Positions 617 to 28,302 of a DNA stretch of 64,000 nucleotides are shown here, in pieces. The notes under the pieces are model-generated. The model saw nothing but the letters and a program-made list of their open reading frames with translations, ran no database searches and was not told where the DNA came from. The DNA comes from Candidatus Zixiibacteriota bacterium. GTDB lineage: Bacteria; Zixibacteria; MSB-5A5; DG-27. Location: positions 29,966-93,965 of the forward strand of contig JAUWHO010000001.1 in NCBI GenBank assembly GCA_030605835.1, written 5' to 3'. How positions within the stretch are numbered: the first letter of the stretch is position 1; every line of letters starts with the position of its first letter. The translations under genes and the position numbers were made by a program.

Positions 617-621
617 AGCAG

Positions 622-4986: not shown

Positions 4987-5100
4987 TGATACCTCCCCAG
5001 AATTAGGGTTATTGGTTATAAAGAACTGTTAGCTTTCCTTAGACTGTATTCGATCCATTAGATAATCTAAGCTGCCGAGAACATTTGTCAAGCAAAAAAG

Positions 5101-5240: not shown

Positions 5241-5331
5241 ACTCAATATCTTACACCACTGTGGCCACCTTCGCGCCCAGCTATTTCAGTCTGAACCAGA
5301 ACCGAAAAGTTCTGTCTTTAGTGAGGTCAAC

Positions 5332-5404
5332 CCCCCGCGGCCGGACTCGAACCAGCGACAGGGTGGTTAACAGCCACCTGCTCTACCAACTGAGCTACAT
5401 CCCC
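5332..5404 (-). tRNA. tRNA-Asn(GTT)-like gene. The D, anticodon and T arms are canonical, but the acceptor stem does not pair in my hand fold.
   Basis: On the minus strand: GGGGATG-TA-GCTC-AGTTGGTA-GAGC-A-GGTGG-CTGTTAA-CCACC-CTGTC-GCTGG-TTCGAGT-CCGGC-CGCGGGG-G. The 5' GGGGATG would need 3' CATCCCC, but CGCGGGG is observed. No CCA. Confidence 0.5.
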
Positions 5405-5509
5405 GAAACTGCTTTCAACGTCTCCGTTTACCAACTCCACCTGTCTTTGTCCTGCCCGCGCCGGTATTGGAAATGCTAGGGGCCTTTCACCACAATCTTT
5501 CAGCTCTCC

Positions 5510-6232: not shown

Positions 6233-6277
6233 GCAGCACCTCCTTCGAGAAGATTTTTGAGTTTACCCTTTCATTCC

Positions 6278-6978: not shown

Positions 6979-7117
6979 TTGGTACCTCCCCAGAATTGGG
7001 GTTATTGGTTATAAAGAACTGTTAGCTTTCCTTAGATGTATTCTATCTCCTTAAATAACTTACATTGCCGAGAGCATTTGTCAAGCAAAAAAGTTGATTT
7101 CCTTCATTAGCGGAACC

Positions 7118-9127
7118 TCACTTCACCAGCATCATCCTCCGGGTTTCGGTGAAGTCTCCGGCAGTCAGCTTGTAGAAATAAAGACCGGAGGAAACCGAGG
7201 AAGCATCCCACATCGCAGAGCGGTATCCAGCCGCCTGTCTTTCGTCTACTAAGGTTGCCACCTTTTGACCGGAGAGGTTGTAAATCTCCAGCTTGACGTA
7301 AGCATCTACCGGCAACTGGCAATTGATAGCGGTGGTTGCGTTGAAGGGGTTAGGGTAGTTCTGGCTCAGAGAATACGCTCTCGGCAGAGTAGCTTCCGAT
7401 AGCTCGGAACGGCTATCGAACCACCCCTTAAGAGCCTCCCAACCGTTCCTCTCCCCTGAGGTATAAGCAGCGCCCTCCTTTGCAAAGTACATACAGCTGG
7501 AGTCAATGGTAGAAGAAGGAAAGTCCCCGATGTAGGTCACGAAGCTGTAATCGCCGGAAGGGGCATAACCCGGCACATGCTCTATCAGGTCAGCCCGGAT
7601 GATGCTGTCCGCAAAGGGGATGGTCACATCGCTGTAGCGCCACAGGCGGTAAGGACGGTTAAGCCCCGGCACAAAGGCCTGCGCCCAGATGTCCACCGTG
7701 AGGTTACCCCGCGAGAGATTGAGAACACCGCCGTCATAGGTGATGTCTCCACCCTGCGGCGGAATGACAATCGGCTCATCGTGCGGATACACCTCAACGA
7801 TTCCGACCACCGCGAGGTTGAAGTAGAATGCGCCAATGTCGGAGCGGGTGCCGTCAGGGTCAGTCAGCGAAGGATCGCCGGCATTGATACAGGGGGAGTG
7901 CCACCTTAGGTGGAAATCATCGTTGTAGGGGCCAGCAAACAGCGGGTCAGCATCGATATTGCCGAAACCGGGCCAGCCACCATTGACATCACAGTACCTG
8001 ACTGTAGGATCACTGGCATAACCCACGAAAATCTCTGGGCCGTTTGGCGCTATATTTCCCCACAAGACACTGTTTGTAATCGCTGGGTTGGAATAGTAGT
8101 AGCAATAGACCCCACCGCCGTAAGTAGCCGAATTACCGCTGATGGTGTTTTTGATAATCACCGGTGTGGAGGGGAAGCAAGAAATCCCACTACCTCGATT
8201 AGCCCAATTTTTGCTTATGATATTATCGCTCATCGTAAATTCTGGACGTATCCTCACTATTGCTCTTTTATCTTCATCATCATCACAAGAAATTCCACCT
8301 CCGGTGCTAGCTGAATTACCGCTGATAATATTATTGCTTATCATAGGGCTGGAAACGAAACAGTAAATCCCACCACCGCGAAAGCTAGCCGAATTACCGC
8401 TGAAGGCGTTATCGCTTATAGTCGAACTGGAATATTCACAGCAAATTCCGCCGCCGTAAGTAGCCGAATTACCATTGAAGGTGTTACCACTTATCTTTAA
8501 TCTGCCACGCCAGCAACAGATCCCGCCGCCGAACTCAGCGGAGTTATCGGTAATTGTGTTAGCGCTTATGGTTGGGCTGGAATACTCACAACAAATTCCG
8601 CCACCTTCGGCGTAAGCAACAACTGCCGAATTTCTGCTAATTGTATTACTGCTTATCGTTGCGTTGGAAGATGAGCAAAGAATCCCGCCGCCACCCCACC
8701 AACCAGTCGAATAATTATCGTTGATGATATTATTGCTTATCGTTGGGCTGGAGCCTTTGCAATAGATCCCGCCGCCGGAGCCAGCGCTTCCATTCTGAAT
8801 TGTGAATCCCACAACCTGAGCGGTGCTGTCTTCGCCACTTTCAAAAGTGATGACCGAACCGGCTGAATCACCGTCAATGATAGTGGTGGATATGTAAGCC
8901 GTATCCCCGGTGGTCAAAAACAGCGAAGCTAAAACGACATTATGCCCGTTGAAGTTAAGGTTCTCATAGTAGGTGTCGGGCTGCACCAGGACAGTGTCTC
9001 CATGCGCCCCGTGATTTATCCCTTCCTGTATGGTTGGGTAATCATCGGGGATGTTAATAACAGTAGCACCGGCGATCAGAGGAAACAGCACGACCGTCAT
9101 AACAAAAAGTCTAAGTAAGGCCCTCAT
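7118..9127 (-). CDS. Secreted parallel beta-helix repeat protein with a T9SS type-A CTD.
   Basis: Signal peptide, more than 12 GGGI(Y/C)C...N rungs, and the C-terminal YPNPFN...LYFYKLTAGDFTETRRMMLVK. Confidence 0.8.
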   Translation of the reverse strand: MRALLRLFVMTVVLFPLIAGATVINIPDDYPTIQEGINHGAHGDTVLVQPDTYYENLNFNGHNVVLASLFLTTGDTAYISTTIIDGDSAGSVITFESGEDSTAQVVGFTIQNGSAGSGGGIYCKGSSPTISNNIINDNYSTGWWGGGGILCSSSNATISSNTISRNSAVVAYAEGGGICCEYSSPTISANTITDNSAEFGGGICCWRGRLKISGNTFNGNSATYGGGICCEYSSSTISDNAFSGNSASFRGGGIYCFVSSPMISNNIISGNSASTGGGISCDDDEDKRAIVRIRPEFTMSDNIISKNWANRGSGISCFPSTPVIIKNTISGNSATYGGGVYCYYYSNPAITNSVLWGNIAPNGPEIFVGYASDPTVRYCDVNGGWPGFGNIDADPLFAGPYNDDFHLRWHSPCINAGDPSLTDPDGTRSDIGAFYFNLAVVGIVEVYPHDEPIVIPPQGGDITYDGGVLNLSRGNLTVDIWAQAFVPGLNRPYRLWRYSDVTIPFADSIIRADLIEHVPGYAPSGDYSFVTYIGDFPSSTIDSSCMYFAKEGAAYTSGERNGWEALKGWFDSRSELSEATLPRAYSLSQNYPNPFNATTAINCQLPVDAYVKLEIYNLSGQKVATLVDERQAAGYRSAMWDASSVSSGLYFYKLTAGDFTETRRMMLVK

Positions 9128-9255
9128 TTGGTACCTCCCTTAAAATAGGTTTATTTGTCAAAAGGGGATGCTGGCTTTCCTTGGAATACTTCTCTTATAA
9201 TCCCTATAGTAACCTAAGGCTTCAGATGACCTTTGTCAAGCAGAATGATGACAAG

Positions 9256-10026
9256 CTATTTCAGTCTTTCCTTCGCCTCTTCCCAGAGCCTGTCCATCTC
9301 TTCCAAGTTGGAATCGGAGAGGGTCTTACCCTTCTCTCGCAAACGGTTTTCGATGTATTCGAAGCGTCTTTTGAACTTCTCAGTGGTTGAATTCAAAGCC
9401 TCCTCCGGGGATAAACCTAAATGCCGGCAGAGATTGACCAGGGAGAAGAGTACATCCCCAAGCTCATCTTTGACCTTACGCTTCTCGCCCTCGTGGAACG
9501 ACCTCTCCAGCTCGCCGACCTCCTCCTTGATCTTCTCAAAGACCTCCTCAGCTCTCTCCCAATCGAAATCGAACCGGGCAACCTTCTCCTGCACCCGATA
9601 AGCCTTGAGCAGGGCCGGCAAGGACTTGGGGACTCCCTCCAGGACGGAATACCCCTTCCTGCCGGAATTAGCGAGCTTTATATGTTCCCAGTTCTGCAGA
9701 ACCTCTTCCGGGGTGATCTTCCTCCTTTTCTCGAAGACGTGGGGATGACGAGCGATGAGCTTTTCACAGATCCCCTCGGCGACCCCCCAGATGTCGAAGC
9801 GCCCCTTTTCCTCAGCTAAACGGGCGTGGAAAACAATCTGAAGCAAAAGGTCTCCCAGCTCCTCCTTCAATTTCTGGTCGTCTCCGGAGTCGATGGCCTC
9901 TATGACCTCGTAAGCCTCCTCGATGAGATAGGGTTTGAGGCTCTGGTGGTCCTGTTTCAAGTCCCAGGGACAACCGTCGGGAGAGCGCAGACGAGCCATG
10001 ACTCTTATCAATCTCTCAAATCGGTT
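9256..10026 (-). CDS. mazG: Nucleoside triphosphate pyrophosphohydrolase MazG.
   Basis: MNRFERLIRVMARLRSPDGCPWDLKQ...EE.YE and tandem EExGD-type MazG motifs. The start is moved to the ATG preceded by GAGGGTG. Confidence 0.8.
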   Translation of the reverse strand, partial: NRFERLIRVMARLRSPDGCPWDLKQDHQSLKPYLIEEAYEVIEAIDSGDDQKLKEELGDLLLQIVFHARLAEEKGRFDIWGVAEGICEKLIARHPHVFEKRRKITPEEVLQNWEHIKLANSGRKGYSVLEGVPKSLPALLKAYRVQEKVARFDFDWERAEEVFEKIKEEVGELERSFHEGEKRKVKDELGDVLFSLVNLCRHLGLSPEEALNSTTEKFKRRFEYIENRLREKGKTLSDSNLEEMDRLWEEAKERLK

Positions 10027-15450: not shown

Positions 15451-17916
15451 ATGAGAGTCAAGATCGCGGTCCCAGTTCCCGCCAGAAAGCTGTTCACCTA
15501 CTTGGTGCCGGCCCAACTTCGGGAGGAAATAGAGCCCGGGAAGAGAGTGGAGGTCCCCTTCGGGTCGAGGATCTTAACCGGCCTGGTGCTCGAGCCCTCT
15601 TCTGAGAAAGTGGGGCGCCGGCTGAAGTATGTCAGGAGATGTCTCGACTATAAGCCGGTTCTCTCTCCCTCGCTTTTGAAGCTGGGACAATGGATTTCCA
15701 GATATTACCTCTCCCCTCCGGGAGAGACCTTCAAAGCCATGCTGCCTTCGGGGCTTCTGGCAGCCTCAGAAAACAGAGTAGCCCTCACGGCTCAAGGGAT
15801 ACTCGCAACCAAGGACCTTGAGAAAAGAGAAAGAGATTCAGGTGAAGAGATACTGAGGTTCCTCTACCCCTCCAGGCAGGTAAGGGTCTCCTCCTTGAAA
15901 AAAAGATTCGACTTTCCTGCTTTCAATTCCGTCATAGCGGAGCTTGAGTCTCAGGGACTGGTCAATCTTCTGCCGTCCGTTTCGACGTTGATGGGAGCGA
16001 AATTGGAGAGGACCGTTTGCCTTCCGGGATTTCTACAACTTGGCAGGGGGGACTTAACCTTCAAGGCTCTGGTGGAGGTGTTTGAAGAGAGGGCTCCGGC
16101 TCAGGCGAGGTGTTTGAAGCTTCTCCACCAGAGGGGAAGGCTCAAACTCGGGGAGCTTCTGAAGCTGGCCGCAACCGACCGGGAAGTCATCAACCGCCTG
16201 GTTAGACAACGCCTGGTGGAAATCGAATCCACGGAGGCGATCAGAGATCCATTAGAGTCCTATGAGGCCTATCCCCTGAACGCGAGCGAGCTGAATTCGG
16301 AACAGAAAAGCGCCTTAGCCGAGGTTAGCGGCTCGCTGCGTCAGGGTCAGAGTCGAACCTTTCTCCTCTTCGGAGTGACCGGCTCCGGCAAGACCCAGAT
16401 TTATATTGAGGCCGTCAAGCTCTGCCTGAAGCTGGGAAAATCGAGCTTGATTCTGATTCCAGAGATCTCTCTGACTCCCCAGACGGTGGGGCGATTCAAA
16501 GCCGGGTTCGGAGAGAGAGTGGGGGTGTGGCACAGCCGTCTGTCCCCCGGGGAGCGCTACGACACCTGGAGGCGCGCCCGCGAGGGGGAGCTTGACGTAG
16601 TTGTGGGAGTGCGCTCCGCAATATTCTCCCCACTCCCCAATCTGGGCCTGGTAGTCATCGACGAGGAGCACGACAGCTCTTATAAGCAGGAGTCTCCCAA
16701 TCCCAAATACAACGCCCGGGAGGTGGCGCTGATGCGGGCCAAGCTGGAGAAGGCGGTGACGATTCTGGGTTCCGCCACCCCCAGCTTCGAATCCTATCAA
16801 AATGCCCTCGCGGGAAAGTATGCTCTCTTGAGGTTGAGCTTTAGAGTGGAGGCTCGTCCTTTGCCGAAGGTGGAGATCGTCGATATGGTCACCTCCCCAA
16901 GGGAACCGGGAACGTTGCTGGGCGAGGTGCTCTTCGCCAAGATGAAGAAGGCTTTGAGCACCTCCCGGCAGGTCATACTCCTGCACAATCGCCGAGGCTT
17001 CAGCCCCACCGCCAAATGCCAGGACTGCGGGTTTGTGTGGAGGTGTCCCAATTGTGACATCTCCCTCACCTATCATCGCCAGGATCTGAAGCTCCTCTGT
17101 CACTACTGTGATTTCCACCTTCCGGCCCCCCAGGTCTGCGACAACTGTGGGGGGACGAAGATCTTTTACAGAGGCTACGGCACCCAGAGGATTGAAGGGG
17201 AGGTCAAGAGGTGTTTCCCGGAGTCGAAGCTGGTGCGCATGGACTTCGACGCCACCAGAAGGAAGGGCGCCCATCAGTCCATCTTAGAGGAGTTTCGAAG
17301 CGGGAGAGCCAATCTGCTCCTGGGCACTCAAATGGTGAGCAAGGGACTCGATTTCCCGGAGGTAGTCTTAGTCGGGGTCCTCTCCGCGGATCTCTCCCTT
17401 GATTTCCCCGACTTCCGCGCCGGGGAGAGAACCTTCCAGCTCTTGACTCAGGTCTCCGGGAGATGTGGTCGAGGTCAGCTCCCCGGAGAGGTGGTGGTGC
17501 AGACCTATCATCCGGACAATGCGGCCGTCAAGGCCGCGGTGTCACAGGATTTCGAATCCTTCTTCTGGCAGGAGGTAGCCACCAGAAGGAAGCTTTTCTA
17601 TCCTCCCTTCTCACACCTGATTCTGGTCAGATTCTCTGGAAAGAAGGAAAGCGAGCTGAAAAAGGGAGCTGAGGTCTTCCACAGACGACTGAGCCAAGAG
17701 CTCTCCCTGTTGGCGGAGAGGGTGAGAATCCTGGGTCCGGTCAGCTCTCTTATTCCCAGGTTAAGAGGAGAGTACCGCTACCAAATCTTGATCAAGGTCA
17801 AGAGAATCCTCCCCATGATCGAGGTCCTAGATCAGCTTTTAGAATCAGAATCGATCAGGAAACTCAGAAGGCGAGTGAAGGTCTCAATCGACGTGGACCC
17901 TCAGGAGGTCTTCTAA
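15451..17916 (+). CDS. priA: Primosomal protein N' (PriA helicase).
   Basis: Walker A GVTGSGKT, DEEH, and a Cys-rich zinc-binding region CQDCG...CPNCD...CHYCD...CDNCG. The start is moved to MRVKIA after the terminator and a GAAGG Shine-Dalgarno site. Confidence 0.9.
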   Translation: MRVKIAVPVPARKLFTYLVPAQLREEIEPGKRVEVPFGSRILTGLVLEPSSEKVGRRLKYVRRCLDYKPVLSPSLLKLGQWISRYYLSPPGETFKAMLPSGLLAASENRVALTAQGILATKDLEKRERDSGEEILRFLYPSRQVRVSSLKKRFDFPAFNSVIAELESQGLVNLLPSVSTLMGAKLERTVCLPGFLQLGRGDLTFKALVEVFEERAPAQARCLKLLHQRGRLKLGELLKLAATDREVINRLVRQRLVEIESTEAIRDPLESYEAYPLNASELNSEQKSALAEVSGSLRQGQSRTFLLFGVTGSGKTQIYIEAVKLCLKLGKSSLILIPEISLTPQTVGRFKAGFGERVGVWHSRLSPGERYDTWRRAREGELDVVVGVRSAIFSPLPNLGLVVIDEEHDSSYKQESPNPKYNAREVALMRAKLEKAVTILGSATPSFESYQNALAGKYALLRLSFRVEARPLPKVEIVDMVTSPREPGTLLGEVLFAKMKKALSTSRQVILLHNRRGFSPTAKCQDCGFVWRCPNCDISLTYHRQDLKLLCHYCDFHLPAPQVCDNCGGTKIFYRGYGTQRIEGEVKRCFPESKLVRMDFDATRRKGAHQSILEEFRSGRANLLLGTQMVSKGLDFPEVVLVGVLSADLSLDFPDFRAGERTFQLLTQVSGRCGRGQLPGEVVVQTYHPDNAAVKAAVSQDFESFFWQEVATRRKLFYPPFSHLILVRFSGKKESELKKGAEVFHRRLSQELSLLAERVRILGPVSSLIPRLRGEYRYQILIKVKRILPMIEVLDQLLESESIRKLRRRVKVSIDVDPQEVF

Positions 17917-18145
17917 GTGTCACCACCCGAATAACTCCCTGCCTCTTTCAGAGGTCGAAACTACATAACCTGACGCCTTCCGGCAGATTCTATTATACTT
18001 CCGTCGTAGCCAAACAGGAGTGTTTTCAAGGAAAATAGCATTTCTCTCGGTAAGACTACGTCTGATAGTTTCCAGACCTGGAGGTGAGGAGATTCGATTC
18101 AACCTGATGAGAGATTGAACATCGGTCGGCGTCCAAAATCCTTGA

Positions 18146-18174
18146 CAAAAGAGGATATCGCCTTATTATAGAAA
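18146..18174 (+). promoter_or_regulatory. Sigma70-like promoter candidate (TTGACA-16-TATTAT) upstream of a T9SS cargo gene.
   Basis: TTGACAaaagaggatatcgcctTATTAT, about 55 nt upstream of the ATG at 18231. Confidence 0.3.
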
Positions 18175-18230
18175 GCGAGGCTCTCATTAAGCTTCTTGTT
18201 AAGGCCTCATCTAAGCGCCAACACCTGGAG

Positions 18231-20381
18231 ATGAATATGAGACTGTTTTTGAGCTTTGTCATTGTTTCCCTTTTTCTCCTTCCTGCTTCTTCTTTGGCGG
18301 TGGAGGTTTCCGGTCCGGTATGGGGTCGCTGGACGGTTGAGAACTCCCCTTACGATGTCGTTGGAGAGGTGAGAGTACCTCCCGAATCGACCCTCATAAT
18401 CGACCCCGGAGTGGTGGTCAACTTCAAGGGGCACTACAAATTTATCGTGGATAGTGCCGCGGTGCTGTTAGCAGTCGGGAGCGAGACCGATTCTATCTAC
18501 TTCACTCCAGAGGACACCACCGTTGGATGGCACGGCATCCGCTTCATCCATGCCGACGGAGCCTCACACCTCTCTCATTGTCAAATCAGATACGGAAAAG
18601 CCACGGGGACCTATCCCGACTACCACGGTGGCGGTGTCTTCTGTTACTATTCTGACCTCAAAATTAACAACTGTAGCATCGTCAGAAATCATGCGATGAG
18701 AAACGGTTTTGGCGGGGGAATCTACTGCTACCACTCGAGCTGCGAGATAACTGAAAGCGACATCAGCTTCAACAAGGCCACCCCGATCGGAGGCGGCATT
18801 TACGCCGTCTATTCAAATCTCACCATCAGATCCAGCAGTCTCGTCAGAAACATGGCGTGGGGGGCCGGCGGCGGCATCTACTGCGGCTCCTCCGATTTGG
18901 TCTCAAGCTCCAACAGCTTCAGCGACAATTGGTCCTTCTTCGGAGGCGGGATCTATGCCTTCAGCTCTCAGGTCAACATAACCAGCGACAGCTTTGAAGC
19001 TAACTCCATTAGCCACCTGGGGGGCGGGATTTTCGTTGGCGACTGCGATGGAGTAATAAATGATAACGTCATCGCCGGTAACGATGCTGAGGATGGTGGC
19101 GGCATCTTTTGCGGGTATGGTTCGACGGTTATCATAGCCAATAACCTCATCAGCAATAACACTACCTACCACGCCGACGATGATGGCGGCGGCATCTTCT
19201 GCCACAATTCAAGCCCCGAGATACTTCATAACCTCATTATCGGGAACTTCGCCCAGCGTTACGGTGGTGGTATCTATCTCTGGGGCTCAAGTCCCTTGAT
19301 AGAAGGCAACACCATAAGCATGAACACCGCCCAATACGGTGGGGGCATATGTTGTCACGATAGCTCCTTTGTAACGGTCACAAACAACATACTCTGGGAA
19401 GATTCTGCCGAGGTGGGAATGGAACTCTGCTTGTTATATGATGCGGAAGCAGTCCCCCCTGTGCTTACAGTTAGTTATAGTGACGTTGAAGGGGGCGAAG
19501 GAGATGTTTACGTCGCCCCTGAAGCCGAACTTGTCTGGGGATACGGCAACCTCGATCTAGACCCACTCTTTATCGATTCCCACGGAGACGATTTTCACCT
19601 GCTGCCCACGTCTCCGTGTATCGACGTGGGAGATCCATATATGGAGGACTATGACCACTCCCGTTCGGACATGGGAGCTTTGCCATATTTCCACAAGATC
19701 GCCTTGCGCCTGCGCCCGGATGACCCTTTCCCTCTCAGCTTCCCCCGGGGTTATGACGCCTACGGGATGAGAACCATCGCCAATAACACTGCCTCTCCCA
19801 AGCCGGTCAAGCTTTCGAGCGTCATTACCAACTCCGCCGGTGACACCCTGAGAAATCTGTATTCGTGGGAGGGAAATCTGCCCAGACAACACTTGAGGGA
19901 GGATTACGGCTATCTCCACGTTCCAAGCTATGTGCCGCCCGGTTTCTACAACTACGTGATGGCGGCGGAGAATGCTTCAACCGGTGAGATCTGGCACACC
20001 TCGGTGACGCCGTTTGAGATTTCTGAAGGTGGAGCGATTGCAACCTCTGGTGAAGGTTGGTTCTCACAATTCGGGGAAAAGTTCTCTCGGGGCGAGGATG
20101 TGAGCTTTATCCCTTCAGAGACGAGCCTCAATACTCGTTGTTATCCCAACCCCTTCAATACCTCCACCACTATCAGCTACCAGCTTCAAACTGCAGGCCA
20201 GGTCACTTTGGAAGTCTACAACCTTCTTGGACAGAGGGTGACCACATTAGTGAACGAAAAGCAGCAGGCTGGAGATAAATTTGTAATCTGGGATGCTTCC
20301 CAAGTTTCCTCCGGGCTTTACTTCTACAAGTTGACCGCCGGGGATTTCACGCAGACCAAGAGGATGATGCTGGTGAAGTGA
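18231..20381 (+). CDS. Secreted parallel beta-helix repeat protein with a T9SS type-A CTD.
   Basis: The N-terminus is homologous to the 3130-4986 gene (VWGRWTVENSPYDVVGEVRVP...HYKFIVD). It has GGGI rungs and ends YPNPFN...LYFYKLTAGDFTQTKRMMLVK. Confidence 0.8.
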   Translation: MNMRLFLSFVIVSLFLLPASSLAVEVSGPVWGRWTVENSPYDVVGEVRVPPESTLIIDPGVVVNFKGHYKFIVDSAAVLLAVGSETDSIYFTPEDTTVGWHGIRFIHADGASHLSHCQIRYGKATGTYPDYHGGGVFCYYSDLKINNCSIVRNHAMRNGFGGGIYCYHSSCEITESDISFNKATPIGGGIYAVYSNLTIRSSSLVRNMAWGAGGGIYCGSSDLVSSSNSFSDNWSFFGGGIYAFSSQVNITSDSFEANSISHLGGGIFVGDCDGVINDNVIAGNDAEDGGGIFCGYGSTVIIANNLISNNTTYHADDDGGGIFCHNSSPEILHNLIIGNFAQRYGGGIYLWGSSPLIEGNTISMNTAQYGGGICCHDSSFVTVTNNILWEDSAEVGMELCLLYDAEAVPPVLTVSYSDVEGGEGDVYVAPEAELVWGYGNLDLDPLFIDSHGDDFHLLPTSPCIDVGDPYMEDYDHSRSDMGALPYFHKIALRLRPDDPFPLSFPRGYDAYGMRTIANNTASPKPVKLSSVITNSAGDTLRNLYSWEGNLPRQHLREDYGYLHVPSYVPPGFYNYVMAAENASTGEIWHTSVTPFEISEGGAIATSGEGWFSQFGEKFSRGEDVSFIPSETSLNTRCYPNPFNTSTTISYQLQTAGQVTLEVYNLLGQRVTTLVNEKQQAGDKFVIWDASQVSSGLYFYKLTAGDFTQTKRMMLVK

Positions 20382-20666
20382 GGTCCCTGATCCTCTTTTG
20401 ACGGGGGCTGTGTAAAGCATTGTGTGGTTTTCTGCCCAGGGGTGGCTAGAGAAGAAATGTATATGCCGGCAGGGACAGACAGTCCTGGATAAGCTTGACA
20501 GGATCAAGCGCAAAACCATGAGGCTGAGGCGCGCTCAGAATCGCCCAACATGTTTTTCAGCCGTTGCGGGTTTTTGGGGCATTTAAGCTACGATTCAGAA
20601 ATAAACTTGCGAGTTTACCAAACTCTGAATTCACGCAACAGCCCCGAAATCGGCTGCAAAAAATCG

Positions 20667-21512
20667 TTATGTATTTTCAATTATGCCACTATTGACGCAT
20701 ATTTGTGTGAACAGTGCTCCAACATTAAATAGGACTGTATTTCCTGTATCAATTCCCAGTTTATTTACTTTTATCTTAACTTTAATTTCAGCTTTTTTCC
20801 GTGCATCAAAAATTGCAAATATACCTTGCGCACCCTTACTTCCCGTAATATTCACTCTTGCTGGATTGTTTTCAAATTCTTTTGAGCAGGTTTTAAGAAC
20901 ATAACTTTTTATATCCTGCTCATCTGTTAACTCTAAATATTCTTTAGTCACGAACTCATTACCATAAAATTCCATTTTTGTTAGGATAGAAAAGTCTTCT
21001 TCTCTGTCAAAGGAAATAACGTCAATGCTCATAAAGAATCTATTATCAAGGGTTCCTTGTTCTATCAGGTAATCTATATAATAATCTAAACCATCAGTTA
21101 TTCTGCCTGAGTTATCAATATTGTATTTCTTTTTAAGAACCGCCAGAAGTTTCTTTAGCCCAGTATCAAAGTTACCCCGAAAATCAGCGTAGAGTTTGTC
21201 TCTTAGTAGAAGCGGTATTTTGCAATCATCAATAATAACTGGAAGTATTGTTATTTTCTTATCTTCAATTTCTTTTAATAGCCCTGCATTAATTTCCCTC
21301 TTAACCCACTCGGATTTTATTGAGTTATTTGAAAATACAACACAAATGTAGCTTGCTCCTTCAAGACCATCCTGAATCTTATTGATAAATGAATCACCAA
21401 CACTGATTTGCCACTCATCTTTCCATACCTTGACATTATGAGAAATGAGAGACATAGCTAGTTTATCAACAAATTCGCTATCTTGATGGTTATAACTTAT
21501 AAATACTGACAT
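20667..21512 (-). CDS. TIR-domain protein with an uncharacterized C-terminal domain of about 145 aa (TIR-C).
   Basis: FISYNHQDSEFV (beta-A) and SEWVKREI (SxW...E catalytic-Glu signature). The C-terminal half matches nothing I recognise. AT-rich codon usage. Confidence 0.75.
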   Translation of the reverse strand: MSVFISYNHQDSEFVDKLAMSLISHNVKVWKDEWQISVGDSFINKIQDGLEGASYICVVFSNNSIKSEWVKREINAGLLKEIEDKKITILPVIIDDCKIPLLLRDKLYADFRGNFDTGLKKLLAVLKKKYNIDNSGRITDGLDYYIDYLIEQGTLDNRFFMSIDVISFDREEDFSILTKMEFYGNEFVTKEYLELTDEQDIKSYVLKTCSKEFENNPARVNITGSKGAQGIFAIFDARKKAEIKVKIKVNKLGIDTGNTVLFNVGALFTQICVNSGIIENT

Positions 21513-21565
21513 AGATTTTCACTATTATCTCATCACATAACGATAAGGATAACCCCCTGGTATGG

Positions 21566-21600
21566 AGCGCAGCGGAATACCAGTCGGGTTCATCTTTTTG
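21566..21600 (-). terminator. Hairpin between TIR-B and TIR-C. Possible intrinsic terminator or attenuator.
   Basis: Minus strand: CTGGTAT-tccgctgcgctcc-ATACCAG, then GGGGTTATCCTTATCGTTAT. A GC-rich hairpin in an otherwise AT-rich spacer. Confidence 0.3.
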
Positions 21601-21617
21601 TTATGCTAAATTAAGTC

Positions 21618-22001
21618 TCAGTCCCGAATAGCTTTTGCTATCTCCTTAGCTGCAGAAACTGGAGAGCTTTCACGCAAATATTGATATTTTACTAAGGATA
21701 AAGGTAGTCGCTCATGTCCAACTTCATCAATAACAACTGGAATAATCCTTTTTTTGTCAGCCACAGCAGCCCCTAACTCAAAATATATCCATGGACTTTG
21801 AAGGCTATTTGAACTTAACAAAACCACCAAAGTGCTACTCGCCCGAAGTGCCTCTTGAGTTTGTTGCCTAATATCTTCCCCTAAGGATATTTCATGATAA
21901 TCAAACCAAACTTCAATTCCTTCCTGCTCAAGGGTTTCAGCGAATGCTTGCACCCAACGTCTGTCTTTGAAGGAGTAGGATAAGAATATTTTATTCTTCA
22001 T
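21618..22001 (-). CDS. TIR-only protein (TIR-B).
   Basis: FLSYSFKDRRWV and SPWIYFEL (SxWxxxEL). 127 aa. Its start overlaps the upstream TIR-A stop. Confidence 0.75.
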   Translation of the reverse strand: MKNKIFLSYSFKDRRWVQAFAETLEQEGIEVWFDYHEISLGEDIRQQTQEALRASSTLVVLLSSNSLQSPWIYFELGAAVADKKRIIPVVIDEVGHERLPLSLVKYQYLRESSPVSAAKEIAKAIRD

Positions 22002-22435
22002 TTCTCTACCCCCATCTTAGAATCTTTGTTGACACGCTCTTCAAGCTGACCGAAATATTGGTCAATATCATTTAAACTAATGATGTCCCTTTTCTTTAGG
22101 AATACAGGTGCGTTGGGACGAGATTGAAATTCTGAAGGGGATAAACCGTGCAAAACCACAATTATTGGGATTCTCCTTATCCACGCTGCTCCTATTTCTG
22201 CCCATACGTATGGCCTCTCAAATGACCATGGTGTGAATAACACTAATAATTCATCTGCCTTATCCAAAAACTCTAGAATATCTTCCTCGAATTCAGCACC
22301 AATATCGACATCTGCCTCATCGAGAAATGGAGTAGCATTGTGAGATGTTATTTCTCTTGCTATCTGCCTTGCCACCCAAGTATCTTGCCCCGAATGGCTA
22401 ACAAACACCAATTTTTCATTAGTTTGGTCGGTCAT
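21998..22435 (-). CDS. TIR-only protein (TIR-A).
   Basis: FVSHSGQDTWVA and TPWSFERPYVWAEIG. 145 aa. First gene of the AT-rich island operon. Confidence 0.7.
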   Translation of the reverse strand: MTDQTNEKLVFVSHSGQDTWVARQIAREITSHNATPFLDEADVDIGAEFEEDILEFLDKADELLVLFTPWSFERPYVWAEIGAAWIRRIPIIVVLHGLSPSEFQSRPNAPVFLKKRDIISLNDIDQYFGQLEERVNKDSKMGVEK

Positions 22436-22463
22436 TCCATTAAGACCTTTTCTGTTTTATTGG

Positions 22464-22469
22464 CATAAC
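22464..22469 (-). promoter_or_regulatory. Candidate -10 box (TATAAT) for the TIR operon.
   Basis: Minus strand ...CACTGTATAATCATTG..., about 30 nt upstream of the TIR-A ATG. Confidence 0.3.
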
Positions 22470-22606
22470 AATGATTATACAGTGTGCATAAACCGGCAAA
22501 GATAGACTTTTTCCTTCCGTATAAACCTTCTGAGCATTTCATAGTTCATGGGCCTAAGTCCTTGAATATCCATGTTATATCTCCTCTCATCATCTCAACG
22601 GGGTTT

Positions 22607-22629
22607 GTCTTATACAGTCTGTATAAGAC
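22607..22629. repeat. Perfect 11-bp inverted repeat with a 1-nt spacer, at the island edge.
   Basis: GTCTTATACAG-t-CTGTATAAGAC, followed by a GC-rich tract (ccggggctgcgcacccccttgcggccgcgg) inside AT-rich DNA. Confidence 0.5.
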
Positions 22630-22864
22630 GGCTCAAAGCCCATCTCCGGGGCTGCGCACCCCCTTGCGGCCGCGGTTCAGATGCTTCGATTCACTACAGA
22701 CAACTGATGAAGAGCCCGAAGGCCTTCGATCCACTCTCCCAACACTTATGACGCCACCGCTCTCTTGCACGAATTTCTCCGGCTTTTCAATGTATTTCGC
22801 ATATAATATATCTCTGACAAAGAGTCAAGAAAAACTTATCTTTTTCTGCCATGCTACGCCAACC

Positions 22865-22999
22865 CTTGAGTGCGGTCCGGAAAATGCCTGTGGATATCTT
22901 AATGGGTGGGATGCTTCTGATGTCTCCTCTGGTCTTTACTTCTACAAATTGACCGCTGGTGACTTGTCTGAGACTAAAAGGATGATTCTATTGAAATAG
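22865..22999 (+). pseudogene. Orphan T9SS CTD 3' remnant with low-GC codons (...NACGYLNGWDASDVSSGLYFYKLTAGDLSETKRMILLK*).
   Basis: Only about 45 codons of CTD homology at the 3' end of an otherwise composite ORF. Third codon positions are AT-biased, unlike the native CTDs. Confidence 0.5.
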
Positions 23000-23259
23000 T
23001 GTCACCAGCTAGCCTCGCCGAAGACACCAGGGATTAGATTAGCGTAGGTCAAGTATCAGACCGAAGCTAACTTCCATCAAGCGGCAGGAATTTTCTTGAC
23101 AACAGGGGGCTTTTTTGTATCTTTGGAAATGAAAGGGCTTGATGACGCCGCCCCATTCTAACTGGTCAGAATGAACTCTACCGCGGGGCGATCATCTGTT
23201 TGACAGTCCGAAGCGTGTCTAAAACGTCCGAAGTCTTACCATTCCAAAAAGGAGGAGCT

Positions 23260-24957
23260 ATGAAGAGAAGCTATTTTCTTTCGATGCTTCTGATTGTCTT
23301 TCTTTTTACTTCTTCTCTATCCTGGGGCGAATTCAAGTATGCGGTGCTGGTAAATAACTCCACCTATCAGATCCCGGAGTGGGCCCTTGTTGCTGATACT
23401 CTGAAGTCGCGCTACGACGGTGAGATTTTCACCTGGGAAAGCTCGGTGTGGGACGTGCGCTCGGAATTGTCAGCTTACAAGCCAACCCACATCGCCTTCG
23501 TCTGCGAGCCCCTGACCGCCAGCGCCGGTTTCGTCCAGATAGTGTGGCCCTTTACCCGCTGCCTCGACGATGATCCCTACGGTGATGCCATCTGGGGGAT
23601 AATCACCGGTTACGACGCTGCAGACGCTCTTCGCCTGGCCAACTGTGAGCCTTTTGTGGTTAAGAACATGCTTGGAGGCACGATGAGCTGTGATGTGAAC
23701 TATTACCCCCAGGGAATAGCCACCAGCGAGGCAACTTACAATCGCATCCGCTTCAAGTATCTGGACGGCACCATCATCGACACCACCGATGAGAATCTCT
23801 GCCCCACCGACCGCACCGAGTTCCTTATGGACATGATAAACGCCGACACTATCGACATCTTTATGACCAGCGGACACGGCAACCACGACCGCTGGCAACT
23901 GCACTATCCCTCTCCCGACCTGGAGGGGTTTTTCATGTCCAGCGCTGGTCAACTCTACGGAGATCCTCGTATCGGTCCGAACATCAACGCCAATTCCGTC
24001 AATCCCAAAATCTACTTAGCCTTAGGCAACTGTTATGTCGGCAAACTTCAGAACCTGAATTCGATGGCTCCCGCCTGGATCCATACCGGCGGAGCCTCTC
24101 TCATGACCGGCTATGTGGAGTGGGAGGGCACCTATAGCCACCAGCACGGTGGCACCAAAGCTTTCTTCGCCCGCCAGGGGCTTTACACTTGGCCGGAGGC
24201 ATTCTTTTTAGCCAACCAGGCCCTTTACTTTGACCTCGACAACCACACTCCTGGCACTAACCCCCCAGATTTGAACTGGTCGGCGCTCTACGGAGACCCA
24301 GCTTTGGATGCCCGTCTGGACACCGTGTCTGGGGTTATTCCCGGCTCGATGTATGAGGAGCAGATTGAGATCGTGCCCGGAGACGACAAAGACACTGTCA
24401 CGGTGCGGATTGTCATGAACCGGGAGGACTCGCCGGGCTACAACGGGAAGTGGGGGAATCGCCATCCCATTATTCTTTTCCCCTTCCGGGCTGAAAATCC
24501 GGTCATCATCAAATACGACCCGGAATGTTATACCGCCGAGGTTACCGATGATTTCTTCTTGATGTGTATCTGGTGGCTGGGTGACGCTCCCCTTCCAGCG
24601 GGAGCGACCCGGGAGTTCGTCTTCACCTGCGACCACATGGTCACCTCCGTGGAGGAACCTGCCTCACCACCTCTGCCGAGCAAGATAGTCCTTTACCAGA
24701 ACCGTCCCAATCCCTTCAACGCCCAGACTCAGATCAGATATCAACTCTGCTCCCCGACCGCGGTCAACTTGGCAATCTACAACCTCCAGGGGGAACGGGT
24801 CTGCACTCTGTTCGAAGGGTATCAATATCCGGGAACATACAACCTCATCTGGGACGGTCGCAATCAGAGGGGAGGCGAGGTGGTCTCGGGAATCTACTTC
24901 TACCGCTTGACCTCCGGCGACATCTCCGAGAGCCGACCGCTCTTATTGTTGAAATAA
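23260..24957 (+). CDS. T9SS-CTD cargo protein with a C25/clan-CD-like cysteine peptidase core (gingipain-like).
   Basis: Signal peptide after an AGGAGG site. A His-Gly motif FMTSGHGNHD and a downstream Ala/Gly-Cys motif LALGNCYVG resemble the clan CD His/Cys dyad. C-terminal RPNPFN...IYFYRLTSGDISESRPLLLLK. Confidence 0.6.
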   Translation: MKRSYFLSMLLIVFLFTSSLSWGEFKYAVLVNNSTYQIPEWALVADTLKSRYDGEIFTWESSVWDVRSELSAYKPTHIAFVCEPLTASAGFVQIVWPFTRCLDDDPYGDAIWGIITGYDAADALRLANCEPFVVKNMLGGTMSCDVNYYPQGIATSEATYNRIRFKYLDGTIIDTTDENLCPTDRTEFLMDMINADTIDIFMTSGHGNHDRWQLHYPSPDLEGFFMSSAGQLYGDPRIGPNINANSVNPKIYLALGNCYVGKLQNLNSMAPAWIHTGGASLMTGYVEWEGTYSHQHGGTKAFFARQGLYTWPEAFFLANQALYFDLDNHTPGTNPPDLNWSALYGDPALDARLDTVSGVIPGSMYEEQIEIVPGDDKDTVTVRIVMNREDSPGYNGKWGNRHPIILFPFRAENPVIIKYDPECYTAEVTDDFFLMCIWWLGDAPLPAGATREFVFTCDHMVTSVEEPASPPLPSKIVLYQNRPNPFNAQTQIRYQLCSPTAVNLAIYNLQGERVCTLFEGYQYPGTYNLIWDGRNQRGGEVVSGIYFYRLTSGDISESRPLLLLK

Positions 24958-25044
24958 GTTTTTTGTACGGCCCGGAGAGATTGAGTTAGTTCTCGGTGAG
25001 AGAACCGAGAGCTGAACCTTGCATCAGATTTGAAGGGTGTTGTA

Positions 25045-27132
25045 ATGAAATCCATACTCAAAGCATTCTTTAGGTTCGGAGCTCTGCTTTCAATCTGCTG
25101 TTTTCTATCTCCGATTACGCTCCTGGCACAGTGGCAACTCGTAGATTCCACAAGCTTCCAGGTGAGATTAGCTGCAGATAGCAACTGCTTTATTACATTC
25201 AATCCCGGAGATGATTCTTTAGAGGTCACCCTCCCCGAAAGAGGGCTTTCGGAGACGGCGCTTTTGGCTTTGGAGAAAGCTCCCGATTGGTTGAAGCCAG
25301 CTCTGGGGGACAATCTCGCCAGGCTGGCAACCGGGCTGCAGGACACCTACGCGGCGATAATACTGAATTCCACCGACCCGTTTGTTGATGAACTCTGTTT
25401 CGAGATTGCCCAGCTAGCCCCGCGGACCCTGCGGGATATGGAGAGATGGGAGGCTTTGGAGGTCTTGACGGAAAATGTGGCCTCCCTTTACAGCATTGAT
25501 AACTTCCTGGAGTATGCTGACATCCTTGACTACGGCAACTCCTCCCAGGGGGGTGACTATTATTCGACCGTCAGTTACCGAGTGGAAGAGGAGGGGGATA
25601 CTCTGGAGTTCGAGCTCCCCAAAGAGATCTATTACTGGTATCTGGTTCATCCCAAAATCCACAAGGAGCTCCCGGCATACATCGACCCCAATACCGGAAA
25701 CCCCTCCTGGCCTCCTTACGGGTTTTTCTGGAGAGACTATTTGATGAATTACGCCGACGGAGGCTATCCCTTACTGAAAGATATGCTTGAGGGAGTGGAG
25801 ACTCTCTGGAACAACATCCCCGACAATATTGAAAACGGCGCCGTTGGAGTTTTAACCGCCTGGGTCGATTCGGTGATGGACTTTATATCCTACCCTCATC
25901 ACGACCAGCCGGTGAGGATATACCACCTCCATATAGGGACTTGCAGCGTTCACTCTTACCTGACCTCGGCGGCAGCGAGGGCGGCCTTGATTCCCGCCAC
26001 CGTGACGGTGATGTACAGCAACGACCATAAGGTCAACGAGTTCTGGGAACGGCGCTGGATCAGCTGGGAACCGGTGGGGATACACATTGACAATCCCCGC
26101 TGCTACGACCCCGGTTGGGGCTGGGATATTGCCGCCGTCTTCAACTGGAAAGGGAACGGCTTCATCTGGGATGTCACCGAGAGATACACCGAGGTCTGCA
26201 CCTTGAAAGTCACCATCACTGACGCTGGTGGCAGCCCCGTCGATGGTGCCCGAATAAAACTCCATAGTGCACCCTGTGTGGCCTGGGGAGCCACCGCGGG
26301 ATGGACAATCGAGACCGGGGAAAAACAGTTCCTCTTGGGGGACAGTCGCGATTTCACCGGTCGAGTGGACAGCGAACTCGGAGGCTACCCTCCGAGCGGG
26401 ATGGAACAGATAATCACCGGTAGCCAGCCGGGAGCGGTTTATACCTGGGAGGTCACCCTCCCGGGGGATATGCCCCAGCTTGAGATTCTGCCCGACACCC
26501 TTCCCGAAAACCCCAGGGATGAATTCAAAATCGAGCTGGAGTTTGAGCTCCCTTCAGAGATCCTTTACGGTGACAACCTCGACGACAACGACAGCTTCTC
26601 GGAGTTCGTCTCGCCGGGGCAAATAGACCTCTTCATCTGCGATCAGGCCAACTTCGATGACTATATCGCCGGTAGTGAATTCAAAGCCTTTGAAATCAAT
26701 CGTGGGGTCCCGCAGGGTACGCTCGAGTTTGTCTTTCCAACCGATGATGTCTGGTATCTGGTTTTCTCCAATGAGAAATCAACAGTGCTCACGCAGCAGT
26801 TAGAGATGGTCGCCTACCTCTACCAGAAATCGACCGGAGTTGCCGAGAGAGAGGAATCCGAAATACCCCAAAGCTTCAAGCTGGTGGGGAACTATCCTAA
26901 TCCCTTCAATAGCCAGACTACCATCAGCTATCAGTTGCCGGTGAACAGCGAGGTGAAATTGGAGCTTTACAACTTACTGGGACAGAAGATAACCACATTG
27001 GTTGACGAAAGACAGGAAGCCGGATACAGGTCAGTCATCTGGGAAGCTACCGCAGTTTCTTCTGGTATCTATTTCTGCAAGTTGACCACGGAAGAATTCG
27101 TTCAGACAAAGAGGATGTTGCTGATTCAATAA
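25045..27132 (+). CDS. T9SS-CTD cargo protein with a transglutaminase-like cysteine protease core.
   Basis: GTCSVHSYLTSAAARAALIPATVTV...DHKVNEFWE matches the Cys...His...Asp transglutaminase-like pattern (G.C......A..R.LGIPAR...H.W.E). C-terminal YPNPFN...IYFCKLTTEEFVQTKRMLLIQ. Confidence 0.65.
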   Translation: MKSILKAFFRFGALLSICCFLSPITLLAQWQLVDSTSFQVRLAADSNCFITFNPGDDSLEVTLPERGLSETALLALEKAPDWLKPALGDNLARLATGLQDTYAAIILNSTDPFVDELCFEIAQLAPRTLRDMERWEALEVLTENVASLYSIDNFLEYADILDYGNSSQGGDYYSTVSYRVEEEGDTLEFELPKEIYYWYLVHPKIHKELPAYIDPNTGNPSWPPYGFFWRDYLMNYADGGYPLLKDMLEGVETLWNNIPDNIENGAVGVLTAWVDSVMDFISYPHHDQPVRIYHLHIGTCSVHSYLTSAAARAALIPATVTVMYSNDHKVNEFWERRWISWEPVGIHIDNPRCYDPGWGWDIAAVFNWKGNGFIWDVTERYTEVCTLKVTITDAGGSPVDGARIKLHSAPCVAWGATAGWTIETGEKQFLLGDSRDFTGRVDSELGGYPPSGMEQIITGSQPGAVYTWEVTLPGDMPQLEILPDTLPENPRDEFKIELEFELPSEILYGDNLDDNDSFSEFVSPGQIDLFICDQANFDDYIAGSEFKAFEINRGVPQGTLEFVFPTDDVWYLVFSNEKSTVLTQQLEMVAYLYQKSTGVAEREESEIPQSFKLVGNYPNPFNSQTTISYQLPVNSEVKLELYNLLGQKITTLVDERQEAGYRSVIWEATAVSSGIYFCKLTTEEFVQTKRMLLIQ

Positions 27133-27162
27133 AGAAGAACCTCTGAACTCACTGGAGCTATT

Positions 27163-28302
27163 GTGAGAAATGAAGTAAGCCCAAAAGCGATCTGCGTTTT
27201 TGCTCTGGCAGTTCTCTACCTGATACTTATTCGAAGTGCGCCCGCCTATTGTGAGGTACCAGTCGATTTCTTCGACCAGATTGCGGAGGAGAAAATCTGG
27301 GAGGGATTTCCGGTTATCTGGATTGCCTCCTACAGCGATCCCATGACTGGTTACGACGTCAACTGCGACAAAAACACCCGATTCAAAGGGATGGGTTTAC
27401 CCCTGCGAAAAATCGAGAAACAGGATTCGGTCTCCTATCTCTATTTCCTCAGCGGTGCTTTTCTCCTCCAGGACTTGCAGGGAGACTGGAATTACCTTTA
27501 TCGCCTGTGGGCATTTCTGAACCTCTCCGAAGATGGGAGGATACTCAAGATTGCCGCCGAAGAGGGTCCTTTCCGTTATTTGGGTTATAATCCCTCCCCC
27601 TACGATTCAGGGTATCAGTTCATGATGGTGGAGGGGAACCACTATCCTCCCACTGGTCATTCCGGTTCTATTTGGATAGATGGTCACTATCAAGAGATCC
27701 CCACTCCGGAGGTGGTCTATGAGATCTCGGCATATCATTTCGAGGGGGAAGACACCGTCAGTTTCTCTGGCGTGGCCTTAGAACCTGTTCAGATGGGGGG
27801 AATCGATTATCATCTGACCGGAGGCATAATTGAACAGGCCTCTTCCAAGATTAGGCCTCACCGGATCTTCGGCACCCTGGAATACGACGGCTCTTATCAT
27901 TTGTATTTAGAGTCGGATTACATCGATTACTGGGGGAGATATATTGGACAATACTATGGTGAGGGAGACTACTGGGACGTCCTTGTCGTGGAGGAAATTA
28001 GTCCACAGTGTCTCCGAAGAGGGGAGCTTGAGGGACAAGTCCAGCCGATGTCAGGCAACGTGTGTCCTAATCCCTTCAACGTTTCCACAACCATCAGCTA
28101 TCGGCTGCCGGTGAACAGCGAGGTAAAACTGGAAGTTTACAACCTTCTCGGGCAGAAAGTGATAACGTTGGTTGAAGAAAAACAACAGGCCGGATACAAG
28201 TCAGTAATCTGGGAAACCTCGAACATATCCTCTGGTATCTATTTCTACAAGCTGACCGCTGGGGATCTTAACGAAACCAAGAGGATGACGTTATTGAAAT
28301 AG
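27163..28302 (+). CDS. T9SS-CTD cargo protein of unknown function.
   Basis: N-terminal hydrophobic signal. C-terminal CPNPFN...IYFYKLTAGDLNETKRMTLLK. Confidence 0.7.
   Translation: MRNEVSPKAICVFALAVLYLILIRSAPAYCEVPVDFFDQIAEEKIWEGFPVIWIASYSDPMTGYDVNCDKNTRFKGMGLPLRKIEKQDSVSYLYFLSGAFLLQDLQGDWNYLYRLWAFLNLSEDGRILKIAAEEGPFRYLGYNPSPYDSGYQFMMVEGNHYPPTGHSGSIWIDGHYQEIPTPEVVYEISAYHFEGEDTVSFSGVALEPVQMGGIDYHLTGGIIEQASSKIRPHRIFGTLEYDGSYHLYLESDYIDYWGRYIGQYYGEGDYWDVLVVEEISPQCLRRGELEGQVQPMSGNVCPNPFNVSTTISYRLPVNSEVKLEVYNLLGQKVITLVEEKQQAGYKSVIWETSNISSGIYFYKLTAGDLNETKRMTLLK

Follow-up and report, generated by a model that had tools for sequence, protein, structure and literature searches.

A low-GC island in the 64-kb stretch of Candidatus Zixiibacteriota DNA analysed here (64,000 nt, hereafter the window) is likely to be the remnant of an integron lying on the minus strand, with the stretch at positions 22436–22999 as the upstream edge of this decayed chromosomal integron. 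The island carries three genes for TIR proteins, termed TIR-A, TIR-B, and TIR-C, and lies inside the 3′ end of cargo1, a cargo gene of the type IX secretion system (T9SS). Its GC content is 34–40% over 20549–22600, against a window mean of 52.6%. By class, the element is probably a cluster of attC sites lacking integron-integrases (CALIN) with a remnant of the integrase gene intI and an origin in a co-directional integron; this kind of element is already known, and the member is new. Without an IntI, it falls short of a complete integron: neither tblastn nor a hidden Markov model (HMM) search detected an intact integrase in the window. The window shared 93–95% nucleotide identity with two contigs of Candidatus Zixiibacteriota-type metagenome-assembled genomes (L001 and L014), and an exact-sequence look-up found no identical sequence on record for its proteins.

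TIR-A/TIR-B and TIR-C are two integron gene cassettes, a nature that had gone unnoticed in the preliminary description of this DNA. The genes, cassettes, and recombination sites are located as follows.

21998–22435, minus strand: TIR-A, 145 aa, matching TIR models only.
21618–22001, minus strand: TIR-B, 127 aa, overlapping TIR-A by 4 nt.
20667–21512, minus strand: TIR-C, 281 aa, with an N-terminal TIR_2 domain and a C-terminal half without a Pfam match.
21541–22468, minus strand: cassette 1, 928 nt, containing TIR-A and TIR-B and opening with TTATGC.
20549–21540, minus strand: cassette 2, 992 nt, containing TIR-C and opening at the box GTTATGT.
21535–21606, minus strand: attC1, 72 nt, composed of R″ (GCATAAC), a 5-nt spacer, L″ with one extra base, a central hairpin, L′, a 6-nt spacer, and R′ (GTTATGT).
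20543–20672, minus strand: attC2 (probable), 130 nt, a long imperfect inverted repeat with R″ (ACATAAC) over the TIR-C stop codon and R′ (GTTGGGC).

It follows from recombination at G|TT that the first 6 nt of a cassette (TTRRRY) pair with R″ of its own attC site. Both window cassettes obeyed this rule with exact 7-mers. Read as the reverse complement, the start box of cassette 1, GTTATGC (22469–22463), equals the R″ of that cassette, GCATAAC (21606–21600), and the start box of cassette 2, GTTATGT (21541–21535), equals ACATAAC (20672–20666). The rule was also observed in two loci with an intact integrase. In L008, whose integrase scored 466.8 bits with TIGR02249 (cutoff, 265), three of the four cassettes agreed exactly and the remaining one with a single mismatch; it held in L049 as well.

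An attC site is an imperfect inverted repeat of the form R″ (RYYYAAC)–L″...L′–R′ (GTTRRRY), with bases left unpaired on one side. The locus L008 also provided an independent model of the attC sites. There, the gene pair of window cassette 1 forms the first cassette downstream of the intact intI, at least three more blocks follow, and every block ends in a site of approximately 135 nt. The four L008 attC sites have one canonical structure in common, with 24 predicted pairs and compensatory changes in 9 of them: an R″/R′ stem, an asymmetric internal loop, a long L″/L′ stem with unpaired bases on the 5′ side, and a variable centre. A covariance model, R1, was built solely from these four sites and run on both strands of the whole window with filters off. 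It recovered attC1 end-to-end (21606–21535; 34.9 bits, E = 5.8e-7), and the next match had an E value of 2.7; the spacer downstream of TIR-B folds into the L008 attC architecture. The position of R″ over the TIR-C stop codon in attC2 parallels L008, in which the first R″ lies over the stop codon of TIR-B. Two other candidates within the island were rejected as attC sites: the stretch 22450–22590 has no fold (z +1.6), and the ends of 22593–22685 (TCTGAAC...GTTGAGA) are only partly complementary, without an R1 match. R1 also gave a weaker match in L008 itself, at 2152–2282 on the plus strand upstream of intI (25.5 bits, E = 2e-4), near two short Phage_integrase gene fragments (L008 1016–1607), which may represent a second, decayed array.

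Upstream of the cassettes, the GC content of 22601–22780 rises to 55% between flanks of 38–40%. This segment had been described as a GC-rich, hairpin-prone stem region, and these properties are real. As judged from its encoded residues, however, it is where the coding sequence of an integron integrase ends, and not a terminator or operator.

22633–22686, minus strand: 3′-terminal remnant of an integron integrase gene, KHLNRGRKGVRSPGDGL, the last 16–17 codons and the stop codon.

When L008 IntI was searched against the whole window by tblastn, the best match was 22680–22636 (minus strand), corresponding to the last 15 IntI residues, and both sequences end at the stop codon. From 120 collected IntI homologues, 102 were used for a position-specific scoring matrix of the 15-residue C-terminal motif HVLNxGGxGVxSPAD. 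With this matrix, KHLNRGRKGVRSPGD scored 22.4 bits, and the next-best 15-mer in six frames of the whole window scored 0.8. None of 200 Markov-simulated 64-kb windows reached 22.4 bits (maximum, 15.6). In the remnant, as in 78 of the 102 IntI sequences, the D of the motif is separated from the stop codon by two residues. In a codon alignment with three intI genes, the similarity begins at the His codon and the stop codons coincide; nothing IntI-like was found in that alignment upstream of the His codon. A longer intI pseudogene in 22687–22906 and an intI gene elsewhere in the window were also considered and rejected, as tblastn, the full-length IntI HMM, NCBIfam, and Pfam were all empty.

The orientation of the stub fits the same origin. 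It is co-oriented with the cassettes, as is the intact intI in L008 and L049. The contigs of two further loci, L047 and L048, break off soon after the 3′ end of intI and have housekeeping genes on its upstream side, which fits the co-directional layout; these contigs gave no further attC sites. A conserved open reading frame (ORF) of approximately 113 aa without a family match occurs directly downstream of the co-directional intI in L008 (4450–4794), L048 (11015–11356), and, in a fragmented form, L049 (~7000–7370), and is absent from the window and from L047.

Approximately 165 nt separate the intI stop codon (22633) from the first cassette junction (22469|22468). This interval contains the following features.

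22463–22480, minus strand: attI-like simple site, consisting of the L-like box GTATAATC (22480–22473), the spacer ATT, and the core GTTATGC (22469–22463), with G|TT at 22469|22468.
22486–22526, minus strand: two direct core-related boxes, GTTTATGC (22493–22486) and GTTTATAC (22526–22519).
22607–22629, no strand assigned: perfect 11-bp palindrome, GTCTTATACAG-t-CTGTATAAGAC.
22475–22573, minus strand: ORF of 32 aa, MDIQGLRPMNYEMLRRFIRKEKVYLCRFMHTV, with GGAGA 7 nt upstream of the ATG.

The palindrome, which had been reported from the sequence and is indeed present, is composed of two inverted GTCTTATAC boxes, begins 4 nt past the stop codon of the intI remnant, and is followed by GTTGAGA (22599–22593). 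Perfect inverted repeats of 11 bp or more, with loops no longer than 10 nt, were found at only two loci in the 64 kb, against a Markov-null mean of 0.15 per window. The other one (3041–3070, TGGGGCAGGAGT...) lies just downstream of the stop codon of a cargo gene (3130–4986, minus strand). The palindrome region has a 23-nt near-copy 135 nt away, which had been overlooked: 22610–22632 and 22475–22497 form an 83% direct repeat, and a GTT-type core comes after either copy (GTTGAGA and GTTATGC, respectively). Of the 13 minus-strand copies of the motif TTATRC in the whole window, four (at 22626, 22524, 22491, and 22468) lie within 22468–22626, the sole 180-nt stretch of the window with at least four. 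Related boxes were seen in two independent integrons of the same IntI clade. The first cassette junction of L049 reads ATTATAAT-GTTATGC, and the attC site of that cassette opens with GCATAAC; L047 carries inverted GGTCTTATGC and GCATAAACC boxes 43 nt past the intI stop codon. By analogy, the palindrome and the TATAAT-containing box are putative integrase-binding parts of an attI site. Among the functions offered for the palindrome and the GC-rich segment (an operator, an att-like site, or a small-RNA terminator), the att-like site comes closest for the palindrome, and the GC-rich segment is accounted for by the end of IntI.

The hexamer TATAAT (22479–22474, minus strand), included in the L-like box, lies 39–44 nt upstream of the TIR-A start codon (22435) and had been taken for a clean promoter. 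The hexamer is there, but it has no acceptable −35 element, and promoter-like sites were not enriched in the region (5 found versus 7.1 expected). Both sigma-70 candidates on the minus strand, TTGACT (22826–22821)...TATATG and TATAAT itself, failed the scan, and no sigma-70 promoter on the relevant strand and no intrinsic terminator were detected in 22436–22999; the former was defined by two hexamers 16–18 nt apart and the latter by a GC-rich hairpin leading into a T-run. The evidence thus does not favour TATAAT as a promoter, although a role as a cassette promoter is possible.

The same elements could be read as regulatory, with the palindrome and its half-copy as transcription factor operators, or the 32-aa ORF as a regulator or leader, controlling the TIR operon. 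The two copies lie 135 nt apart, the second overlaps a −10-like TATAAT 40 nt upstream of TIR-A, and the ORF has GGAGA 7 nt ahead of its ATG, all of which would suit such control. However, no regulator is encoded on the island, and the sequence upstream of TIR-A is not conserved in loci with the same gene pair. A conserved leader was rejected, as eight homologous loci had unrelated sequences in the corresponding upstream position; the 32-aa ORF, without a conserved counterpart ahead of TIR-A elsewhere, is unlikely to be a gene. The boxes, moreover, resemble the crossover core and are in direct orientation as in attI, and the promoter scan was negative. We therefore consider regulatory control by these elements unlikely and an attI site the better reading.

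The borders of the island were defined by the C-terminal domain (CTD) tails that T9SS cargo genes carry. Three tail segments are relevant.

20289–20381, plus strand: CTD tail now on cargo1 (gene 18231–20381), its first 56 nt of the cargo4/L014 type (55/56).
20345–20381, plus strand: incoming replacement tail, ...DFTQTKRMMLVK and the stop codon, the last 37 nt of the current cargo1 tail.
22907–22999, plus strand: orphan CTD tail of 30 codons, WDASDVSSGLYFYKLTAGDLSETKRMILLK and the stop codon, with CTD-like codons at 22907–22996.

Copies of an 89-nt direct repeat of CTD-tail sequence, 79% identical to each other, flank the island on either side (20289–20377 and 22907–22995), a feature that had not been recognised. 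A CTD tail ending at 22999 had been described with a length of approximately 45 codons. The tail exists, but only the last 30 codons of the 171-aa ORF containing it (22484–22999) align to CTD paralogues; the upstream part is unrelated, and the ORF has no match to Por_Secre_tail (PF18962). It is thus a fragment and not a full CTD of approximately 75 aa. Nor does the island start at the cargo1 stop codon (20381), as had been proposed: synteny is lost from 20344 and low GC begins at about 20549.

Relatives covering the left side of the island were L014 (95% nucleotide identity), L015 (84%), and L016 (~92%); the L001 contig stops within cargo1. In L014 and L015, homology to the window ends exactly at 20344, 37 nt before the cargo1 stop codon, and these contigs continue with a different tail and a gene absent from the window. 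They were rejected as empty sites and are uninformative on the island because cargo2–4 are wholly absent there. In L016, positions 1–4006 correspond to window 16373–20377, 3933–5673 to 22922–24651, and 6103–9662 to 24706–28265. Hence L016 has a single CTD tail in place of the two copies and 2618 nt of the window, and the alignment identifies it as the apparent empty site that the preliminary description had suggested searching for. The L016 orthologue of cargo2 contains approximately 430 nt (L016 5674–6102) that are not in the window gene (24651–24706). The gene next in L014, L015, and L016 (MLTRFLALL...) does not occur in the window.

The L016 comparison also settled which tail is native. Over the last 37 nt, the orphan agreed with the L016 cargo1 tail at 32/37 positions and the current cargo1 copy at 24/37. 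The downstream flank of the orphan (22922–23260) matched L016 3933–4285 with 82% identity (E = 6e-100), and no similarity to L016 was found for the downstream flank of the current cargo1 copy. The relation was reversed with two other cargo tails of the window: the orphan and the current copy agreed at 23/37 and 31/37 positions, respectively, with the tail of 7118–9127 (minus strand), and at 24/37 and 30/37 with that of 3130–4986 (minus strand). Over the first 56 nt, the orphan matched L016 cargo4 and L014 at 46/56 positions each, and the current cargo1 copy at 55/56 each. The likeness of the current tail to the other CTD tails of the genome runs 6 nt beyond its stop codon. Because orthology to the L016 tail covers both the end of the orphan and the flank behind it, we concluded that the orphan is the displaced native 3′ end of cargo1.

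These results bear directly on the model in the preliminary description, in which the TIR cassette arrived on donor DNA from a lower-GC relative that also encoded CTD cargo, leaving the orphan as the donor CTD, with the palindrome and GC-rich segment as an operator or terminator. Its attractions are the GC content of the island (34–40% versus 53% in the window), the CTD copies on both sides, and the GC content at third codon positions (GC3) of the remnant, 0.47, the lowest among the CTD tails. The L016 orthology of the orphan tail and its flank, however, already contradicts it. The incoming tail (20345–20381) is of a high-GC3 "RMMLVK" type, 81–84% identical to other cargo tails of the genome, and a lower-GC CTD-bearing donor is therefore not indicated. 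The tail alignments gave the opposite assignment: the remnant is native and the current, GC-rich cargo1 tail is foreign. The AT-biased codons said to set the remnant apart from every native CTD also lie within the native range, as 30-codon windows of native cargo genes had a mean GC3 of 0.64 (sd 0.11), with 7.2% at or below the remnant, and the native cargo3 tail had 0.53. The orthologous functional tail of L016 has a GC3 of 0.60 overall and 0.50 in its last 12 codons; the TIR genes have 0.26–0.37. The codon bias of the remnant is no significant outlier; it is mild, in part ancestral, and in keeping with neutral drift in a fragment that is not translated. Since, in addition, the GC-rich segment encodes the IntI C-terminus and neither a terminator-like site nor an Rfam family was found in 22436–22999, the lower-GC donor is very unlikely.

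Another explanation takes the palindrome and GC-rich stretch as a structured RNA serving the TIR genes, such as a terminator, small RNA, riboswitch leader, or retron-like non-coding RNA. The segment 22585–22740 does fold better than shuffled sequences, with z-scores of −3 to −4 on both strands, but a two-strand signal is what a DNA palindrome next to GC-rich coding sequence is expected to give. No T-run follows either hairpin, the terminator scan was negative, R1 had no match in the stretch, and the only Rfam match in 22436–22999 was P26 at E = 0.81. A retron, a type III toxin-antitoxin system, and a riboswitch-like non-coding RNA upstream of the TIR genes were rejected in the absence there of a reverse transcriptase, tandem repeat, or Rfam match. 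Such an RNA is highly improbable. An assembly chimera at repeated CTD sequence, to which the repetition of CTD tails in the genome and the abrupt stop of L014 homology inside one of them might point, has next to nothing in its favour, given that the flanking copies share no more than 79% identity, that the sequence at both island junctions is unique, and that the order of cargo1 body, island, old cargo1 tail, and cargo2 is coherent with L016.

Here, we propose a model for the history of the locus as a decayed integron. On the minus strand, the order would be the intI stub (22686–22633), the attI-like region, the core G|TTATGC, cassette 1, attC1, cassette 2, and attC2. The attI-like region, of approximately 170 nt, would be built from repeated GT(Y)TTATRC boxes, one pair of which forms the palindrome and one L-like box of which contains TATAAT. 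In the intact co-directional integron, IntI would have bound these boxes and recombined folded attC sites with the core, thereby capturing the TIR cassettes. Because the integrase is gone, the array is frozen as a CALIN. The whole 2.6-kb block may have entered, or become fixed in, the CTD tail of cargo1 by recombination anchored in the stretch encoding ...GLYFYKLTAG, giving cargo1 its new last 12 codons and leaving the old 30-codon tail as an untranslated orphan. The truncation of the integrase could have preceded or followed the arrival of the block.

As the island is bounded by CTD-tail copies, recombination in the T9SS CTD coding sequence is the likely route, and on this point the preliminary description was borne out. 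Neither island end has a GTT-type junction, which makes it unlikely that IntI inserted the block as a whole. On the left, the boundary falls where cargo1 and its paralogues are near-identical; at the right boundary (22906|22907), no homology was found upstream of the boundary. Two paths would explain this arrangement most simply and equally well: a one-sided homologous exchange anchored in the conserved CTD stretch, with the other end joined illegitimately, or a Campbell-type integration of a circle bearing a CTD tail.

Breakpoints at CTD tails recurred in the compared loci. Across four relatives of 84–95% identity, three independent structural differences have their junctions in the CTD stretch: the island, a 5.5-kb cargo2–cargo4 block, and a break at 28265. 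The 5.5-kb block is missing in L014 and L015, with its junction within the CTD tail (L014 8463; L015 3783), and window–L016 synteny breaks at 28265, 37 nt before the stop codon of a cargo gene. The window also contains a second orphan CTD tail without a cargo body, ...AGYRSVVWDASEVSCGIYFYKLTAGDYTETRRMMLVK and the stop codon, at about 5123–5240 (minus strand). This tail lies approximately 100 nt downstream of a tRNA-like gene (5338–5399, minus strand; 46.7 bits with Rfam, none with ARAGORN). As a tentative proposal, the stretch encoding ...SGLYFYKLTAG in T9SS tails might, in this Zixibacteria-like lineage, be a recurrent, portable homology anchor at which whole downstream modules are swapped, each event supplying a new last 12 codons and an orphaned old tail. 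It is equally tentative, and drawn by analogy, that such modules could displace tips in the manner of contact-dependent inhibition (CDI) and Rhs loci; they would comprise cargo genes in some cases and, in the window, an integron fragment bearing defence cassettes.

The three island proteins matched only TIR models of Pfam, PADLOC, and NCBIfam, below the equivalog cutoffs, and their TIR domains matched ThsB-like and PDC-S66 models. No SIR2, SLOG, or Macro domain was found in the three proteins; lacking a ThsA-type effector, the locus does not qualify as a Thoeris system. Pfam, PADLOC, and NCBIfam gave no match for the final ~150 aa of TIR-C. The TIR-A family is large and tightly conserved, with more than 1300 proteins of at least 70% identity, and a TIR-A homologue is nearly always followed by a TIR-B homologue across very different genomic contexts. 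These include an archaeal-looking contig (L009), where the pair lies beside genes for Cdc6, the PolD small subunit, and eRF1. In L006 and L012, a four-gene variant adds an upstream ThsB_TIR protein and a 227-aa protein. No canonical R″/R′ pair was found in L004–L007, L012, or L013, and the TIR pair there is not demonstrably a cassette. The TIR genes may act in defence.

Two segments of the island lack an assigned function.

20382–20548, no strand assigned: 167 nt of 54% GC, from the cargo1 stop codon to the end of the cassette array, without a homologue among the loci compared.
22687–22906, no strand assigned: 220 nt separating the orphan tail from the intI stub, similar to neither IntI nor CTD and without a match among the loci compared.

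These segments lack an explanation and are among several points that count against a remnant integron; the former, which opens with TTGGGC on the minus strand, may be the start of a truncated third cassette. The integrase remnant is short, at 16–17 codons, and was missed by the full-length IntI HMM (3.6 bits), NCBIfam, and Pfam, as would be expected at that length. attC2 had no R1 match at E ≤ 10, and its fold was not better than those of shuffled sequences (z −1.3); we therefore refer to 20672–20543 as a probable second attC site. Sequence alone cannot prove an attI site, the box motif was chosen with the region already in view, and the attI regions of L008 and L049 carry other palindromes. 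Finally, L016 is the sole relative informative on the empty site, and secondary loss of the island there would formally also account for its single tail.

With a remnant integron as the explanation, what had looked like an odd edge of promoter, palindrome, hairpin, and orphan tail can be annotated in ordinary terms, as the stub of an integrase gene followed by an attI-like site and two TIR cassettes with their attC sites. The direction of the event is also defined: the current gene tail is the newcomer and the orphan is native. A little-sampled candidate phylum joins the hosts of co-directional integrons and CALINs, and the finding that the widespread TIR-A/TIR-B pair travels as an integron cassette helps to explain its spread across phyla. 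The recurrent CTD-tail breakpoints suggest homology-based reshuffling of T9SS cargo arrays, which could matter for genome plasticity in the Fibrobacteres–Chlorobi–Bacteroidetes group.

Among known systems, the attI1 site of class 1 integrons consists of a simple site and upstream direct-repeat IntI-binding sites. The putative attI site of the window resembles it in having a GTTRRRY-type core, an imperfect inverted partner a few nt before, and direct core-like boxes within approximately 60 nt; it differs in lacking sequence homology and in having an extra perfect two-box palindrome 140–160 nt upstream. CDI and Rhs polymorphic toxin loci carry displaced orphan C-terminal modules. As in these loci, a block appears to have recombined at a conserved 3′ coding motif, bringing a new C-terminal tip and leaving the old tip as a promoter-less orphan downstream. 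Unlike in these loci, the tips here belong to T9SS sorting signals and not to toxin domains, an immunity gene plays no part, and what came in is an integron fragment.

Phage-defence genes on integron cassettes are established (Kieffer et al., 10.1101/2024.07.02.601719); anti-phage cassettes are also the subject of Darracq et al. 2025 and Getz et al. 2025, as cited in 10.64898/2026.03.17.712381. The island shares with them small TIR defence-type genes in promoter-less cassettes, each ending in an attC site, of which that of cassette 2 is probable. Those cassettes are from Vibrio or mobile integrons, whereas the window has a TIR–TIR pair without a known defence phenotype and no ThsA-type effector. 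CALINs near intI pseudogenes, and co-directional "inverted integrase" integrons, have been described by Cury et al. 2016 (PMC4889954). A CALIN requires at least two attC sites, the second within 4 kb. The window element agrees in that the window lacks an intact IntI and in that two cassettes, bounded by attC1 and the probable attC2, lie within 2 kb. Its intI remnant of 16–17 codons is far shorter than the intI pseudogenes accepted in that study, for which more than 50% profile coverage was required. It further differs from those CALINs in its host, a Zixibacteria-like metagenome-assembled genome, and in its location inside the 3′ end of a T9SS cargo gene.

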